This document shows positions 9,633-36,763 of a DNA stretch of 64,000 nucleotides, in pieces. The DNA comes from Corallococcus coralloides DSM 2259 (GTDB taxonomy: Bacteria > Myxococcota > Myxococcia > Myxococcales > Myxococcaceae): positions 6,166,328 through 6,230,327 of the forward strand of contig NC_017030.1 of NCBI RefSeq assembly GCF_000255295.1, given 5' to 3'. A model generated the notes under the pieces. The model was given only the letters and a program-made list of their open reading frames with translations. It had not been told where the DNA came from and made no database searches. A program made the position numbers and the translations under genes. Numbering within the stretch: position 1 is the stretch's first letter; every line of letters begins with the position of its first letter.

Positions 9633-10409
9633 ATGGGTTTCCTGAAGCAGGGTGGGTGGGTGGTGCTGGGGGTGTTGCTCCACGCGAGCGGCGCGGCGGC
9701 ACAAATCGTCAACGTGCAGGCGCTCTTCGACGAGAAGGCGGAGCCGGGGCCGGCCGCGGCCATCGAGCTGGGAGGCGACTGGCGCACGGGCAGCACGGAG
9801 CTGTTCTCCATCCGCGGCTCCCTGGTGGGCCAGCTGCGCTCCGACCGCGGCGTCTGGCTGGGCGTCATCCGCGGTGAATATTCGTTCGCCAGCGGTGAGC
9901 GCATCGTCAGCCAGGTGCTGGAGCACGTGCGCTACCGGCGACAGTTCACGGACATGGTGTCGGGCGAGGTCTTCACCCAGCACGAATACAACGAGTTCCG
10001 CCGGCTCCAGCTCCGGGCCCTGCTGGGCGCGGGTCCGCGCTTCATCCTGCTCAACGAGGAACGCCTGGGGTTCACCTTCGGGGTGGCGCTGATGATGGAG
10101 TACGAACGGTTGCGCAAGGACGGCGAGCCAGACGCGGGAGACCGCTACATGGACCCGCGAGTCTCCAGCTATCTACTGGCCCGGGTGAAGCTGATGGAGA
10201 ACATCAACCTCGTGGAGACGGTCTACTTCCAGCCGCGAGTCACCCGCCCCTCCGACCTGCGCGTGCTCAACGAGACGATCTTCGCGGTGACGCCCAATCC
10301 CCGCGTCACGGTGGGCATCGGCTTCAACCTCACCTACGACAGCGCACCGCCCGCGACGGTGCCGCCCCTGGACACGCAACTGCGCACCACGGTGGGCGTG
10401 AAATTCTGA
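9633..10409 (+). CDS. Secreted/outer-membrane protein, possibly DUF481 (YdiY-like) beta-barrel
   Basis: There is an N-terminal signal peptide, VVLGVLLHASGAAAQ, and the protein is about 258 aa. Alternating hydrophobic strands and a terminal F are typical of small outer-membrane beta-barrels. The family assignment is tentative. Confidence 0.45.
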   Translation: MGFLKQGGWVVLGVLLHASGAAAQIVNVQALFDEKAEPGPAAAIELGGDWRTGSTELFSIRGSLVGQLRSDRGVWLGVIRGEYSFASGERIVSQVLEHVRYRRQFTDMVSGEVFTQHEYNEFRRLQLRALLGAGPRFILLNEERLGFTFGVALMMEYERLRKDGEPDAGDRYMDPRVSSYLLARVKLMENINLVETVYFQPRVTRPSDLRVLNETIFAVTPNPRVTVGIGFNLTYDSAPPATVPPLDTQLRTTVGVKF

Positions 10410-33689: not shown

Positions 33690-34460
33690 ATGGCCATGCG
33701 TCTCCGGGCCTGCGGCGCCCTTTTGCTTCTGTTCGTCTTCTCGGCCTGCGCCACGACGGAGCCACGCCCCAGGGCGTCAGCGGCCCGCGGCACGAGGGCT
33801 GCCAACCTCCAACGAGCGGCGGCGCTTCCCTGGAGGGATGAGGGGAGGTGCGTTGTCCGCGAGGCATCCCAGCCTTGGCCCGTGCTGGTGGAGCGGTGCT
33901 ATCCGGCACTCGACCATGACCGGGTCGAGTTCCGAGACACCACGGGAAGCTGCACGGTCGCCTCCGCTGCCGCCGCTACGCTTGGACTCGGGTTCTGCGT
34001 GCTGGCGGCCCCTGAAATCGCGGTGGGAGCCGTCATCGTCCTGGGCGTGGTGGTGGTCGGTGTCGCCATCAAGGAGGCACTGGATGCGTATGAGCTCCGC
34101 CACCTCTACCCCGAGGAAGCAGGGACTTCACGAGGGACGAAGGTTGCGTCCCGAGATGCCGGAGCGAAGCCGAAGCCCAAGCTGGATCCGGAGCCAGCGG
34201 GCCAGGGCCGGCAGCCCCCGGTGCCACCTGTGCCCGTGGACCGGACGGGCCGCGCCAGTTGCGAGCCTGTTCCCGTGCCTCACGCGGGCAAGGACGACAT
34301 ACACAATGAGTGTGCCGACAAGGTTCCGCCCAACCGTTATCCCGGAATGGACGTGCTCGTTGGCGGTGTACGCTTCGATGCGTTGCAAGTCGGCGTGCGA
34401 AAACTGTGGGAGATCAAGACCCACCAATTCGATTCATATAACGCATTTGTCCAGAATTAG
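33690..34460 (+). CDS. Lipoprotein/TM polymorphic-toxin-like protein with PD-(D/E)xK-like C-terminal domain, interrupted by in-frame TAG (reading frame continues to 34619)
   Basis: A lipobox is present, FVFSAC, and there is a TM helix, LGLGFCVLAAPEIAVGAVIVLGVVVVGVAI. The C-terminal ...GMDVLVGGVRFDALQ...KLWEIKTHQF is D...ExK-like. The TAG at 34458-34460 is followed in the same frame by 52 sense codons. That continuation ends in TGA, which overlaps the ATG of the next gene. Confidence 0.5.
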   Translation: MAMRLRACGALLLLFVFSACATTEPRPRASAARGTRAANLQRAAALPWRDEGRCVVREASQPWPVLVERCYPALDHDRVEFRDTTGSCTVASAAAATLGLGFCVLAAPEIAVGAVIVLGVVVVGVAIKEALDAYELRHLYPEEAGTSRGTKVASRDAGAKPKPKLDPEPAGQGRQPPVPPVPVDRTGRASCEPVPVPHAGKDDIHNECADKVPPNRYPGMDVLVGGVRFDALQVGVRKLWEIKTHQFDSYNAFVQN

Positions 34461-34615
34461 GAGATTGCGAAAGAAGTGATCCAACTGAAGAAGGAGCGAG
34501 CTGCCGCAGCGGCATGTGGATATGACTTCATCGTGGGGGTGAGCACCCAAGCGCATAAAGACGCGCTACGCGAAGAAGCTCCCGCGATCGATGTCGTTGT
34601 TACGGGGTGTGCACG

Positions 34616-35377
34616 ATGACCAGGCGGAGAGCCCTTACCCTTATCGTCTACGCGCCTGCGCTCATGGGTAACAACAGCCGCACAGTCGCCGTCGTCCATG
34701 GGATGGAGAAAGCGTTCCCCGGCCTACGCCTGGAGTGGAAACTAGATGAAGGCGGGCGACCCATTGCATTGCCACAGCGCGATGCATGGCTCTTGGCGAG
34801 CAACAAGGACGGTGGATTCCCAATCGTGTGCAACGGCGATGAACGTTACCCCGTGACGGTCTGGGGAATGGAAAGCTCAGGCATCCTCAGCCCAGGCGGT
34901 CAGGCCCAGCTTGAAGTCCACGCAAAACTGCCCTTGGACGAGCCTGTAATCGCGGCAGCGGCGACTCTGCTTGAGGCCGTGGCGGAGGGGGCACGTTCAT
35001 TCTGGGGGCACGCGTCGCCGTACGGCTACGGCTCGGAAGTCGCGCAGCAGTTTCGCCGATCACCGGACGGACCTGAGCGTTCACCCCGTGGGCTTCCCAT
35101 GCTCAACCTTCCAGAGAAGCTCCCAGCGCCTGAGATTCCCTGTTTCCTCGGGTGGGTGAACTATTGGTCCGCGGCTGCCGCGGAGGTCATCGGGTTCCCG
35201 GATCCTGCTCGTGATGCCGAGCTACTCTCGCGGGCACGTCGCACTCCGTCAGGCGGGTGGATCGTGCAGCTCACGGAGACTCCGCTCGATTACGACAACC
35301 CCGTGCACTTGGACGCGCTCAAGCGGGCCTACGAACGCTTTCCAGCAATCGGCGGACGCTCAACGCCTTTGCCCTGA
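34616..35377 (+). CDS. Putative immunity protein (function unknown) coupled to upstream toxin-like gene
   Basis: Its ATG overlaps the TGA of the extended upstream reading frame by ATGA. It is a 253-aa protein with no signal peptide. The 34300-34700 region has locally lower GC. Confidence 0.4.
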   Translation: MTRRRALTLIVYAPALMGNNSRTVAVVHGMEKAFPGLRLEWKLDEGGRPIALPQRDAWLLASNKDGGFPIVCNGDERYPVTVWGMESSGILSPGGQAQLEVHAKLPLDEPVIAAAATLLEAVAEGARSFWGHASPYGYGSEVAQQFRRSPDGPERSPRGLPMLNLPEKLPAPEIPCFLGWVNYWSAAAAEVIGFPDPARDAELLSRARRTPSGGWIVQLTETPLDYDNPVHLDALKRAYERFPAIGGRSTPLP

Positions 35378-35436
35378 AACAGGACAGCCGCCCGACACCT
35401 CTCTGGCGCGGGCGGCTGTTCCATCCAGTCTCCTGC

Positions 35437-36126
35437 TCAGCCCCGGGCGGCGCGGGCGTCACGGCCCTTGGCGCGGGCGGCCTTGGAGAGCAGGTCACTC
35501 CCCTTCTCCTCGCCCTTCATCCACGCCTTCAGCGCGGGCACCACCTGCTTGCTCCAGGCGCGTCCGGCGCGCACGACCAGGAAGTCCTGCACCAGCGCAT
35601 CCACGATGGCGGAGAGCTGCTCGGTCAGCTCCAGACGCTCGGAGAGCTGATCATCCTCTTCCTCCGTCATGAGCGCGGGCAGCTTGGCGGCGCGGATGTC
35701 CAGGAACTCGGAATCCAGCGTGACTTCGTATTCGCGCTCGCCATGCGAGATGCGCAGCCGCGCCTGGGACACCAGCAGGCCCCGGTCCAGCGAGTGGCGC
35801 ACGTTCTCCGAGTACGGCGCCAGCGTGCCCTTGGCGCTCATCTCCGTGACGTCGCCGGCCACGCCGCGCAGCACCACCTTGCCCAGATAGAGGACGACGA
35901 CGCCCGCGCCGTCGTACTCGACCAGGGGGTCGCCCGACTCCGAGCGCCACAACAGCCACGTCATGAACTCGCGGCCCAGGTAGGCCCGGCCGCGCAAGAG
36001 CTGTTCGCGCGCCTTGCCCTTTTCGACTTCGGCCTCGTCCTTCTCCTCTTCCGTGGCGACACCATCGACTCCGACATCGCCCCGGGCGAACGCCGCCTCT
36101 TCCCTCGCCTGCTCACGCCTCGCCAT
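35437..36126 (-). CDS. Hypothetical acidic protein
   Basis: The ORF is long with consistent codon usage. The start was chosen at MARREQ, and it overlaps the upstream gene by 14 bp. I did not recognise a domain with confidence. Confidence 0.4.
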   Translation of the reverse strand: MARREQAREEAAFARGDVGVDGVATEEEKDEAEVEKGKAREQLLRGRAYLGREFMTWLLWRSESGDPLVEYDGAGVVVLYLGKVVLRGVAGDVTEMSAKGTLAPYSENVRHSLDRGLLVSQARLRISHGEREYEVTLDSEFLDIRAAKLPALMTEEEDDQLSERLELTEQLSAIVDALVQDFLVVRAGRAWSKQVVPALKAWMKGEEKGSDLLSKAARAKGRDARAARG

Positions 36127-36763
36127 GGGCGTCCTCCACCGAAGCCGTCGCCGGCAGGTCCATGCCAATGAGCTCCGCCGTGGGGCCCAGGGCCTTCTCG
36201 TCGATGCCCGCGCGCTGCGCCATGGACGCGGGCGTGATGCCAATCACCTTCACCGCGAGGGCGCCTTCCAGCGCCACGCAGATTTCATCCACTGTCTTGC
36301 GCGACGCGGCCCAGACCTGCACCGTGTGCGTCTTCAGGTTCCACGTCACGTCCAGCGTGCTGGTGCGCGGCACGGCGCGCTGACGCAACAGCTGCTTGAG
36401 CTCCGCGCGCTGCTTGTTCTTCTCCGCGCGCGCGGGCGGCCGGCCGTTCTCCTTGCCGAAGGCGGCGGCCCACTTGTCCAGCTCCGACTTCATCATCGAC
36501 GCGGGCACCTTCAGCGTGTCGATGCGGAACGCGAACAGGGCGTACTCGCCATAGAAGAGGTTGCCGGTGGCGAACTCGGAGGACTCCGGGTTCTCCAACT
36601 CGACAAACCCCGCGGCGCGCTCCTCCTCGGAGCGGCGGTCGATGGGCTCGAACGCATGGGACTTGAGTCCCTTGGTCATCCAGCGCTTGACGTCGGACGG
36701 CGCATCCTTGGCCGGCTCGGTCCGGAAGCGCGAAAAGGTCACGGCACCACGTAGGACAGGCAT
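36113..36763 (-). CDS. Hypothetical protein (only the 3' 651 nt of the long track ORF judged real)
   Basis: The C-terminal 216 aa, from MPVLRGAVTFSRFR, read as well-formed protein sequence. The upstream part of the ORF is antisense to the S13 peptidase gene and looks like a shadow frame. Confidence 0.4.
   Translation of the reverse strand: MPVLRGAVTFSRFRTEPAKDAPSDVKRWMTKGLKSHAFEPIDRRSEEERAAGFVELENPESSEFATGNLFYGEYALFAFRIDTLKVPASMMKSELDKWAAAFGKENGRPPARAEKNKQRAELKQLLRQRAVPRTSTLDVTWNLKTHTVQVWAASRKTVDEICVALEGALAVKVIGITPASMAQRAGIDEKALGPTAELIGMDLPATASVEDAHGEA

Follow-up and report, generated by a model that had tools for sequence, protein, structure and literature searches.

A probable disarmed copy of a two-gene polymorphic toxin–immunity module in Corallococcus coralloides DSM 2259, with a putative PD-(D/E)xK-fold toxin domain and a retained DUF5953 partner

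The known systems closest to the locus reported here include toxin–immunity pairs of T6SS effectors and of myxobacterial lipoproteins. TseT–TsiT (PA3907–PA3908) from Pseudomonas aeruginosa and the Tse/Tsi pairs from Burkholderia gladioli are Tox-REase-5 nuclease effectors with Imm52 immunity proteins, and Tox-REase-5/Imm52 pairs with DNase activity have been reported (bioRxiv 10.1101/835710). TseV/TsiV and PA0822/PA0821 are VRR-Nuc PD-(D/E)xK T6SS effectors accompanied by DUF3396 immunity proteins, PA0821 being the immunity protein of its pair and the DUF3396 proteins TsiV1-4 giving immunity to PD-(D/E)xK T6SS effectors (PMC9635880). Meanwhile, SitA/SitI are myxobacterial lipoprotein toxins and their immunity proteins, where the toxin is delivered by outer membrane exchange (PMC5562445, PMC8546572), and the SitA families are defined by six escort domains of about 375 aa (PMC8546572).

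The locus of C. coralloides DSM 2259 lies in a window of 64,000 nucleotides (the whole stretch of DNA that was analysed; contig NC_017030.1, positions 6,166,328 to 6,230,327) and comprises COCOR_04914, a truncated toxin gene, and COCOR_04915, an immunity gene. It is read here, with a probability of about 80%, as a disarmed copy of a two-gene polymorphic toxin–immunity module formed by a PD-(D/E)xK toxin and a DUF5953 immunity protein. The ancestral toxin, of about 307 aa, would have carried a lipoprotein signal, a Cys-containing domain, a TM helix, a Pro-rich linker and, at its C-terminus, the DUF6310 domain; the product of the next gene, a cytoplasmic DUF5953 protein with an Imm52/DUF3396 fold, would bind and neutralise the nuclease domain; and one C-to-T change, from CAG to TAG at codon 257, would have disarmed the toxin in DSM 2259. 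The features of the locus, numbered within the window, are the following.

33644–33679, plus strand: terminator-like hairpin and T-run; stem at 33644–33669 with 11 pairs (8 GC), then TTTTCAATTG
33690–34460, plus strand: truncated toxin ORF COCOR_04914, 256 aa from ATG 33690 or 254 aa from ATG 33696, covering DUF6310 profile positions 2–74 only
33690–33749, plus strand: predicted lipoprotein signal peptide with lipobox FSAC; its Cys, at residue 20, is invariant
33750–33959, plus strand: small conserved N-terminal domain, residues 21–90, helical (pLDDT 80–90), with invariant Cys residues
33999–34070, plus strand: transmembrane segment predicted by Kyte-Doolittle, about residues 104–127, with an invariant Pro-Glu at its start
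34071–34250, plus strand: charged Pro-rich linker (KPKPKLDPEPAGQGRQPPVPPVP), pLDDT below 50
34251–34457, plus strand: N-terminal (putatively catalytic) half of DUF6310, helix 1 and strands 1–3, with D221, D230 and E241-x-K243
34458–34460, plus strand: premature TAG; CAG (Gln) in the syntenic ortholog and Gln, Arg or Lys in other relatives
34461–34619, plus strand: untranslated toxin remnant, 52 sense codons and TGA, DUF6310 profile positions 75–126 (helix 2, strand 4, helix 3, strand 5), with two of the four conserved Cys
34616–35377, plus strand: intact immunity gene COCOR_04915, 253 aa, DUF5953, predicted Imm52/DUF3396-like fold, no signal peptide; its ATG overlaps the ancestral toxin TGA
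35384–35419, strand not assigned: perfect 11-bp hairpin read from the sequence (ACAGCCGCCCG ... CGGGCGGCTGT), between the immunity gene and a convergent gene at 35437–36243 on the minus strand

The first hairpin stands just 5' of the toxin start, where it closes a preceding small ORF; strain B035 has the same hairpin ahead of each of its three tandem units, the hairpin accompanying the toxin unit in tandem copies. The second hairpin, left uncalled by the terminator scan because its loop has 14 nt, is likely to mark the end of the two-gene unit.

Regarding the upstream protein, the original prediction listed a lipobox, one TM helix, a Pro-rich linker and, in its FDALQ...WEIK segment, a D...ExK nuclease core, and all four were recovered, the lipoprotein character and the single TM helix as predicted features. 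A lipobox is found in 76 of 77 relatives, with Ala at position +2 in 73 of those 76, and the small domain that follows has L46/P47/W48, C54, C70 and C88 as invariant residues (window numbering). The Kyte-Doolittle 19-residue mean peaks at 2.72 over residues 109–127, and P106/E107 and G111 of the TM segment are invariant (P0001 numbering), while the Pro-rich linker varies more than any other part of the protein, with a mean pairwise distance of 0.45. The small N-terminal domain, the TM segment and the linker together make up a carrier module. Given a signal peptide and, after it, a single strongly hydrophobic helix, the nuclease domain is predicted to lie in the cytoplasm of the producer; an intracellular role agrees with this topology no less well than an exported toxin does, nor is any delivery gene conserved around the pair.

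The C-terminal domain was assigned by profile and by predicted structure. As encoded, the toxin matches Pfam DUF6310 (PF19829) with 118.4 bits over positions 2–74, and the score rises to 192.7 bits, end to end (positions 2–126 of 126), when the frame is joined across the TAG, the gathering score being 27 bits. Residues D221, D230 (in FDALQ), E241 and K243 (E241-I-K243, in WEIK) are invariant in relatives, the invariance of D230 and of E241-I-K243 being judged in alignments of 15 and 77 relatives. The AlphaFold model of this domain, with pLDDT of about 90, has an alpha-beta-beta-beta-alpha-beta order carrying D, D and ExK on strands 1–3; it presents the PD-(D/E)xK core fold, with D230 on predicted strand 2 and E241-x-K243 on strand 3. 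Moreover, the best matches of the AlphaFold models of DUF6310 and DUF5953 proteins are the two chains of one solved complex, TseT with TsiT from P. aeruginosa, at a Foldseek E-value of only 0.01 and a TM-score of about 0.49 for the toxin against TseT. Neither the window toxin nor ten distant DUF6310 proteins matched Tox-REase-5 (PF15648) in Pfam at E <= 1, and a profile search with DUF6310 against PDB sequences did not recover TseT; with no link to Tox-REase-5/Imm52 at the sequence level, the relationship therefore rests on predicted structures. These support DUF6310 as a nuclease-fold module of the PD-(D/E)xK type, with TseT, a T6SS effector of the Tox-REase-5 kind, as its nearest match, and the intact domain would accordingly be expected to act as a nuclease. 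Its four conserved Cys form two pairs; in distant homologs both members of a pair are either present or absent, and this joint loss suggests disulfides, hence an extracytoplasmic stage in the life of the protein. A search of the literature on DUF6310 or DUF5953 gave no papers, and an NCBIfam search gave nothing useful.

The downstream protein COCOR_04915 matches Pfam DUF5953 (PF19378) with 400.2 bits over positions 2–233 of 233 (gathering score 25 bits), and its model takes the same fold as the immunity proteins solved for PD-(D/E)xK effectors. No Pfam match of COCOR_04915 to Imm52 (PF15579) or DUF3396 was obtained at E <= 1; sub-threshold Imm52 matches occur in 6 of 63 DUF5953 relatives (best E 0.056), and a profile search of PDB sequences with DUF5953 did not find TsiT and returned a weak motif match to 4rho (E 0.39). 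As in TseT–TsiT, a small C-terminal toxin domain of predicted PD-(D/E)xK fold has its immunity gene directly downstream, and DUF6310 also occurs in a T6SS context, in a PAAR-like protein beside a VgrG-like gene. However, the window family falls outside PF15648 and PF15579 by sequence, its lipoprotein signal, TM helix and Pro-rich linker replace the PAAR/chaperone-dependent N-terminus, it has no adjacent T6SS genes, and it has the four conserved Cys in two co-varying pairs. Compared to TseV/TsiV, the toxin domain is nearer to TseT than to VRR-Nuc, the delivery module differs, and the immunity protein has 253 aa against 361 residues in the 7drg_B chain.

The toxin/immunity pairing that the original prediction proposed is supported across the family: the toxin/DUF5953 pair was present in all 80 genome loci fetched, an ATGA overlap joins the two genes in 80 of 89 pairs, and the TseT/TsiT fold matches and the modular toxin domain agree with it. 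The module is multi-copy in genomes of Myxococcaceae and Archangiaceae, where tandem arrays also occur. Around 79 loci no conserved third gene (secretion, chaperone, SitB-like) was found, the recurring neighbours being only kinase-like ORFs and one secreted-looking family, inconsistently. Toxin residues 249–309 are the most variable folded part (mean distance 0.41) and give the best correlation with immunity distance (r = 0.575). Compared with the three tandem copies of B035, only the C-terminal part of the toxin and the immunity gene are allele-specific, with 0.92–0.95 identity to one copy and 0.62–0.77 to the others, while the 5' two-thirds of the toxin is about equally similar to all three and the 5' regions are about 90% identical. 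The co-variation of toxin C-terminus and immunity gene could come in part from their physical linkage. As to the origin of the single pair of the window by recombination between tandem copies of the B035 type, the 5' similarity does not discriminate. The immunity gene of the first B035 pair, annotated as 90 aa and at first sight degraded, is intact in the DNA, and its short form is a gene-calling artefact.

DUF6310 takes the C-terminal position in the proteins examined, whose lengths run from 300 to 1130 aa. Its N-terminal partners include DUF4280 PAAR-like, eCIS_core, LysM, CBM_2 and Transglut_core domains and at least three lipoprotein carriers. The PAAR-like protein adjoins the VgrG-like gene mentioned above, and the eCIS_core protein again has a DUF5953 gene after it. 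Downstream of the PAAR-like protein lies a partial gene, for which partial sequence a DUF5953 match was not obtained. Most of the unrelated carriers that were read also have, ahead of DUF6310, a hydrophobic segment comparable to that of the window toxin, and in the proteins with PAAR-like, transglutaminase, LysM and CBM2 modules such a segment is usually followed by a Pro-rich linker. Conversely, the carrier of the window toxin is 60–68% identical in proteins where a Cys-rich C-terminus of about 60 aa replaces DUF6310, one of which is followed by an unrelated 162-aa gene. Swapped N-terminal modules, alternative C-terminal domains with their own downstream gene, and a co-varying immunity gene directly downstream are thus all present in the family, which is how polymorphic toxin systems were reportedly defined by Zhang et al. 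in 2012.

The resemblance to SitA/SitI extends to the myxobacterial hosts, an N-terminal lipobox (a type II signal, by sequence prediction) with a conserved carrier, a swappable C-terminal toxin with its immunity gene directly downstream, several paralogous loci per genome, and a variable toxin C-terminus that tracks the immunity allele, as seen in the window family. On the other hand, the carrier has about 185 aa against escort domains of about 375 aa, a comparison made by published description only (PMC8546572), and no sitB-like neighbour occurs in the 79 window-family loci. In addition, the predicted TM helix should anchor the protein to the inner membrane and thereby keep it from outer-membrane exchange.

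That helix also bears on the strongest competing explanation, according to which the pair would be an intracellular, membrane-anchored toxin–antitoxin, addiction or anti-phage abortive-infection pair and not an interbacterial weapon: the lipoprotein domain in the periplasm would detect a signal from the envelope, and DUF5953 would restrain the cytoplasmic nuclease until triggered. This is considered unlikely, though not negligible. The predicted topology does place the C-terminal domain in the cytoplasm alongside the signal-less DUF5953 protein, a conserved secretion or accessory gene is missing next to the pair across 79 loci, selfish addiction modules likewise typically come in many copies per genome and in tandem arrays, and it has been argued that Tox-REase-5/Imm52 pairs stem from TA systems (bioRxiv 10.1101/835710). 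However, DUF6310 is also fused to PAAR-like (by a VgrG-like gene), eCIS_core, LysM and CBM2 domains, which are export or injection contexts, and the carrier swaps its C-terminal domain together with the downstream gene, which is the behaviour of a polymorphic toxin. The co-kept Cys pairs suggest disulfides and an extracytoplasmic stage, PADLOC gave no match to known defence-system models, and the residue at +2 of the lipobox Cys is Ala, not Lys, where Lys at +2 is the inner-membrane retention signal in Myxococcus xanthus.

The reading of the DSM 2259 copy as disarmed depends on the stop codon. The toxin frame, which starts at ATG 33690 (ATG 33696 in GenBank), stops at TAG 34458–34460 and is then open for 52 sense codons (EIAKEVIQLKKERAAAAACGYDFIVGVSTQAHKDALREEAPAIDVVVTGCAR) up to TGA 34617–34619, overlapping ATG 34616–34618 of the next gene (gcacgATGAcc). 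Both the interrupted frame and the overlap had been described in the original prediction, and re-reading of the sequence agrees; the prediction took the TAG for a recent nonsense mutation, or else a read-through site, in a formerly longer toxin, and proposed to check for a sequencing error at 34458 and for an intact ORF in orthologs. A run of 52 open codons has a chance probability of about 0.10 at the local composition, i.e., not improbable, and the post-stop frame is regarded as real coding sequence because of its homology and not because of its open length. In strain B035, the syntenic ortholog has CAG at the position of the stop, without indels, and the post-stop codons differ from it by five synonymous and two conservative non-synonymous changes, with no further damage. 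The toxin has 973 relatives, about 1000, and those among the matches listed are of about 305 aa and intact; an in-frame stop occurs in 1 of 88 other copies, at a different place, the TAG being seen only in DSM 2259. An independent Logan assembly, built from run SRR29904087, agrees at 100% identity with window positions 34030–34720 (691 bases), TAG included. With the TAG in an independent assembly and CAG in B035, the stop is therefore a real and recent C-to-T nonsense mutation of Gln codon 257 (CAG to TAG), not an error or a recoding event, and the read-through proposed in the original prediction is not supported, the TAG being private to this strain.

A tolerated or functional TAG, by programmed read-through or by re-initiation at GTG 34476 to give a complementing 47-aa C-terminal peptide and restore the coupling, is accordingly very improbable. 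An AGGAG at 34459–34463, overlapping the TAG, does lie 12 nt before this GTG, and the resulting 47-codon ORF ends exactly at the ATGA junction; the post-stop frame is also undamaged, but this is equally expected after a very recent mutation. Moreover, B035 has CAG with the AGGAG already in place, the listed relatives are single ORFs of about 305 aa, the Val codon that would serve as GTG is not conserved in relatives, the 47-aa product is absent from the protein collection, and no suppressor tRNA, nor any other tRNA gene, was found within the window. Least probable of all is that the gene is really intact and its TAG arose in sequencing or assembly, e.g., from a collapsed paralog or an erroneous base call, since, although mis-assembly is conceivable in a multi-copy family with 5' regions so alike and short-read contigs break inside the gene (one ends near window position 34058), the SRR29904087 assembly spans the TAG without a difference, the GenBank genome has the same 254-aa product (AFE06094.1, COCOR_04914, an exact match), the COCOR_04915 immunity product is present on three Logan contigs, and the stop lies within the allele-specific region, where paralog collapse is unlikely.

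Returning to the disarmed module, the truncated product would retain the putatively catalytic D...D...ExK strands and lose helix 2, strand 4, helix 3 and strand 5. In the predicted structure, the truncation takes away half of the conserved core together with the hypervariable surface whose variation follows that of the immunity allele. The truncated toxin is therefore very probably inactive, although some residual activity is conceivable with the catalytic residues still present. With the immunity gene intact, the locus now pairs a disarmed toxin with an immunity gene that has been kept, is effectively an orphan and presumably continues to be expressed. Orphan immunity genes and degraded toxin genes are well known in polymorphic toxin loci (CDI, Rhs, T6SS), and the DSM 2259 locus is similar to them in having an inactivated toxin beside its intact cognate immunity gene. 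B035, a strain of the same species, has the intact allele, and the retained immunity would protect against it. Unlike the typical case in CDI and Rhs arrays, however, the inactivation is a single, very recent point mutation and not a 5'-truncated orphan cassette displaced by recombination.

The base composition of this region has a different explanation from the one first given. The AT-richness noted for 34300–34700 is real, as GC is 0.505–0.51 in 34300–34600 against 0.66–0.72 in the flanks. As evidence of a recent horizontal acquisition of this copy it was rejected, since the low GC is a property of the variable C-terminal subdomain of the whole family, the last 61 toxin codons having a mean GC of 0.545 against 0.686 in the flanks across 79 copies.

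The DSM 2259 pseudogene itself is ordinary, as a recently inactivated toxin with retained immunity is a familiar state. What is modestly new is the assignment of function at the family level, for two domains that are each found in about a thousand database proteins or more: DUF6310 is a candidate TseT-like PD-(D/E)xK toxin domain and DUF5953 its candidate Imm52/DUF3396-like partner. A broader reading, which is tentative and somewhat less likely to be right than wrong, would take the carrier as an undescribed myxobacterial polymorphic toxin family apart from SitA1-7, whose TM helix would serve to cross the nuclease over the inner membrane of the target, and DUF6310/DUF5953 as a new TseT/TsiT-like sequence clade forming an additional multi-copy barcode for self-identity or kin discrimination in Corallococcus, Myxococcus and Archangium, with the DSM 2259 copy caught between armed cassette and orphan immunity. 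The TM helix in the carrier raises the question of the route by which a membrane-anchored lipoprotein toxin would leave the producer and enter a neighbour. DSM 2259 (TAG) and B035 (CAG) form a natural strain pair for asking if retained immunity protects against armed kin. If confirmed, these assignments would mean that social myxobacteria hold a further multi-copy toxin–immunity repertoire beside SitA.

In the window, the locus is composed of the following features:

33690 to TAG 34458-34460, + strand: toxin ORF, start ATG 33690 (second ATG at 33696, giving MRLRAC...)
TAG to TGA 34617-34619, + strand: same frame past the stop, 52 sense codons
34616-35377, + strand: next ORF (COCOR_04915), whose ATG (34616-34618) overlaps that TGA

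The broken frame described by the original prediction was confirmed in the sequence, with its TAG, its 52 sense codons and the TGA/ATG overlap, as well as the Pro-rich linker and the FDALQ and WEIK motifs of the protein, together with a predicted lipobox (FSAC, Cys20) and a TM-like stretch, residues 109-127 being strongly hydrophobic (Kyte-Doolittle 19-residue mean up to 2.72). Finding 52 open codons is not improbable by chance alone (P about 0.10); it is homology, not open length, that identifies them as real coding sequence, as DUF6310 (Pfam) matches the encoded product over profile positions 2-74 (118 bits) and the joined frame over positions 2-126 of 126 (193 bits). The protein encoded downstream matches DUF5953 (Pfam) over the full length of the family, with 400 bits.

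A DUF6310 gene is directly followed by DUF5953 in 80 of the 80 loci fetched from species-representative genomes, which span Corallococcus, Myxococcus, Pyxidicoccus, Citreicoccus, Archangium, Cystobacter and Vitiosangium, and several of these loci carry two or three tandem pairs. The ATGA overlap, initially regarded as a toxin/immunity junction, recurs in 80 of their 89 pairs. No third gene consistently associated with the pair was found in the neighbourhoods of the family loci. Ser/Thr-kinase-like ORFs occur within 4 kb of pairs (51 instances, 25/79 loci, L001-L080), and a paralogous family of 289-aa secreted-looking proteins is located about 100 nt downstream of the pair in 8 of these fetched loci. 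Some RefSeq/UniRef DUF6310 entries of 245 aa (P0047, P0086, P0092, P0095, P0113, P0116 and P0119) begin at an internal start, MLVERCY..., and their start codons are probably mis-called, dropping the conserved lipobox and N-terminal domain.

Regarding the fold, residues 186-307 in the AlphaFold model of an intact ortholog form a C-terminal domain predicted with confidence (pLDDT about 90), with its elements ordered as helix, three strands, long helix, strand, helix and strand. The invariant D219, D228 and E239-x-K241 of the relative P0001 (D221, D230 and E241-x-K243 in the window) map to strands 1-3 of the model, and the predicted topology corresponds to a PD-(D/E)xK arrangement, in agreement with the nuclease core originally proposed. 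Judged from modelled structures, each gene product appears to match, independently of the other, a different chain of the same solved complex of toxin and immunity protein, TseT/TsiT from P. aeruginosa. Tox-REase-5 effectors with Imm52 partners, the group of TseT/TsiT, degrade DNA (bioRxiv 10.1101/835710). The sequence-level link to Tox-REase-5/Imm52 was absent or sub-threshold in Pfam, relatives and PDB-sequence profile searches; therefore, the pair is called TseT/TsiT-like in fold and organisation, and membership in PF15648 or PF15579 was rejected. The four conserved DUF6310 Cys (columns 7, 24, 92 and 123 of alignment A6) act as two pairs, Cys24 and Cys123 being both missing in the relatives P0393 and P0396, which retain Cys7 and Cys92, and this alignment pattern seems more consistent with a pair of disulfide bonds than with a metal site built from four Cys.

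Polymorphic toxins are defined by a constant carrier with swappable warhead-partner cassettes and by a warhead common to unrelated carriers. DUF6310 behaves as the toxin domain of such a system, because carrier and warhead swap both ways. A DUF6310-domain-only profile, searched against 1.84 billion representative proteins, gave 256 matches; the best 150 listed, which reach 1130 aa in length, have the domain at the C-terminal end or close to it. When 20 of the matches, mostly long proteins, were scanned with Pfam, DUF4280 (PAAR-like), eCIS_core, LysM, CBM_2 and Transglut_core emerged as N-terminal partners. The PAAR-like-DUF6310 gene directly follows a VgrG-like gene, DUF5953 is again found downstream of an eCIS_core-DUF6310 protein, and an unrelated small gene lies downstream of a transglutaminase-DUF6310 protein. 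Most long-carrier proteins possess a hydrophobic segment ahead of DUF6310, usually followed by a Pro-rich linker. Within a set of unrelated carriers (PAAR-like beside a VgrG-like gene, transglutaminase, CBM2 and LysM; locus L084 2-2235 and proteins P0393, P0313, P0328, P0396 and P0402), the TM-like segment stands directly before DUF6310, the linker being usual, which suggests a conserved membrane-translocation cassette travelling with the domain. The window carrier (lipobox, Cys domain, TM segment and linker) is also present, at 60-68% identity, in ~240-aa proteins bearing a ~60-aa Cys-rich domain in place of DUF6310. This 8-Cys C-terminal domain (WR..C..YV.C...GE..CQSC...C...G.WP....PCPGG), without a Pfam match, is a second kind of cargo borne by the carrier (P0452, P0466, P0467, P0439, P0443 and P0462; Hyalangium minutum locus L086, 4001-5199), and in H. 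minutum an unannotated 162-aa gene, different from DUF5953, begins 3 nt after the carrier/8-Cys gene.

The best-supported reading is that intact family members would be nuclease toxins, neutralised by the cognate cytoplasmic DUF5953 protein, with immunity retained in DSM 2259. An intracellular toxin-antitoxin or defence role is rather doubtful but stays alive because the predicted topology, a lipoprotein signal plus one TM helix, would anchor the protein in the inner membrane and leave the nuclease in the cytoplasm of the producing cell. Three features point toward export instead: Ala occupies position +2 after the lipobox Cys, each of the two Cys pairs is either retained or lost as a unit in distant homologs, which suggests disulfides, and the hydrophobic segment also stands ahead of DUF6310 in injection- or export-linked carriers.

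According to the nuclease-toxin reading, the DSM 2259 toxin would have been lost via a single nonsense mutation and the immunity gene kept. The database search gave 973 toxin relatives; those listed are ~305 aa and uninterrupted, save some with N-terminally shortened gene calls, and the aligned ones have Gln, Arg or Lys at the stop position. The closest, EJ065_4681 from C. coralloides B035 (93% identical), occupies the syntenic position, flanked by a major-vault-protein homolog and an rdgC-like gene, where B035 has three tandem toxin-immunity pairs versus one in the window. In the DNA alignment, the codon is CAG in B035 and TAG in the window, with zero indels across the gene. Past the stop, there are 5 synonymous and 2 conservative codon differences from B035, and 11 synonymous and 9 non-synonymous in the immunity gene; as the post-stop remnant is undecayed, the C-to-T mutation is recent. 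Orthologs thus bear out both the longer ancestral toxin and the recent nonsense mutation first proposed. All three B035 pairs (locus L081, 6266-11682) are intact, versus the one pair with a broken toxin at 33690-35377. The vault homolog in the window (30863-33139, - strand; 758 aa, Vault repeats and MVP_shoulder), a bacterial counterpart of the eukaryotic protein, is directly upstream of the toxin locus and also flanks the B035 array. Among the 89 family pairs, an in-frame stop interrupts just one further copy, and a few copies are incomplete or carry a frameshift close to the end; toxin inactivation occurs in the family but is uncommon.

In the AlphaFold model, the stop falls five residues into the long helix after the ExK strand, removing the long helix, strand 4, helix 3, strand 5 and two of the four conserved Cys. 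Helix 2 and strand 4 are required for the canonical core, so the truncated protein of 254 aa very probably lacks activity. A tolerated TAG, either as the read-through site previously offered as an alternative or in a split toxin, is quite unlikely. That the TAG is a sequencing or assembly artefact is very unlikely, as a Logan assembly of the separate run SRR29904087 is completely identical over 34030-34720, TAG included, which answers the call for resequencing; the 254-aa product is exactly AFE06094.1 (COCOR_04914, C. coralloides DSM 2259), and COCOR_04915 matches the downstream protein at 100% identity.

The segment lost through the stop is also the variable part: over 76 pairs, residues 249-309 have a mean distance of 0.41, compared to 0.205 in the catalytic half, and their divergence tracks immunity divergence best (r = 0.575 versus 0.05-0.35 elsewhere). 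The first ~700 bases of the window toxin are about 0.9 identical to all three B035 copies, while from about 34400 on copy 3 stays near 0.95 and the other two fall to 0.62-0.83. The AT-rich stretch reported at 34300-34700 is real, with a GC of about 0.51 over 34300-34600 versus 0.66-0.72 around; however, its attribution to horizontal acquisition did not stand, and low GC was ruled out as a mark of recent acquisition, being common to the variable subdomain in the whole family (0.545 versus 0.686 in flanks).

Upstream of the toxin, a 78-aa ORF (33383-33679, + strand) carries a hydrophobic stretch at its N-terminus, either a signal or a TM segment, and a tail with 6 Cys (..KICSASCKPCSVQAHCGQGEGSCGIWRCTNPM), with no Pfam match. 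It stops 70 nt ahead of the toxin, and a terminator-like hairpin comes next; the hairpin and the final ~10 codons of the ORF are repeated ahead of each of the three B035 units, and the ORF is also upstream in the family locus L001, so it may be part of the cassette in the window's sub-lineage. Most of the loci L002-L078, from several genera, carry the conserved motif GCTGGCATACTCC ~55-65 nt upstream of the toxin starts (e.g., L009 ~9935-9950), followed by an SD-like GGAGGA/AAGGA and the start codon, and the motif may serve as a shared promoter or regulatory element. It is absent from the window copy and the relatives nearest to that copy, whose upstream region is of the hairpin/CAATTGTTGCGAAGAG type instead.

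Among characterised systems, the nearest are TseT/TsiT and the Burkholderia Tse/Tsi pairs, alike in fold and gene order, TseV/TsiV, alike in immunity fold, and the SitA/SitI lipoprotein toxins, which share the myxobacterial host, lipobox, modular carrier and multi-copy loci. Compared to SitA as described in PMC8546572, the carrier of the window family is short and contains a predicted TM helix, and SitB is absent. The literature search returned no mention of DUF6310 or DUF5953. Taken alone, the locus is a recent pseudogene of an ordinary sort that has kept its immunity gene; what is modestly new is the proposed family-level functional assignment, together with the TM-containing lipoprotein carrier. 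In DSM 2259, COCOR_04915 would still protect against strains with an armed allele, such as B035.
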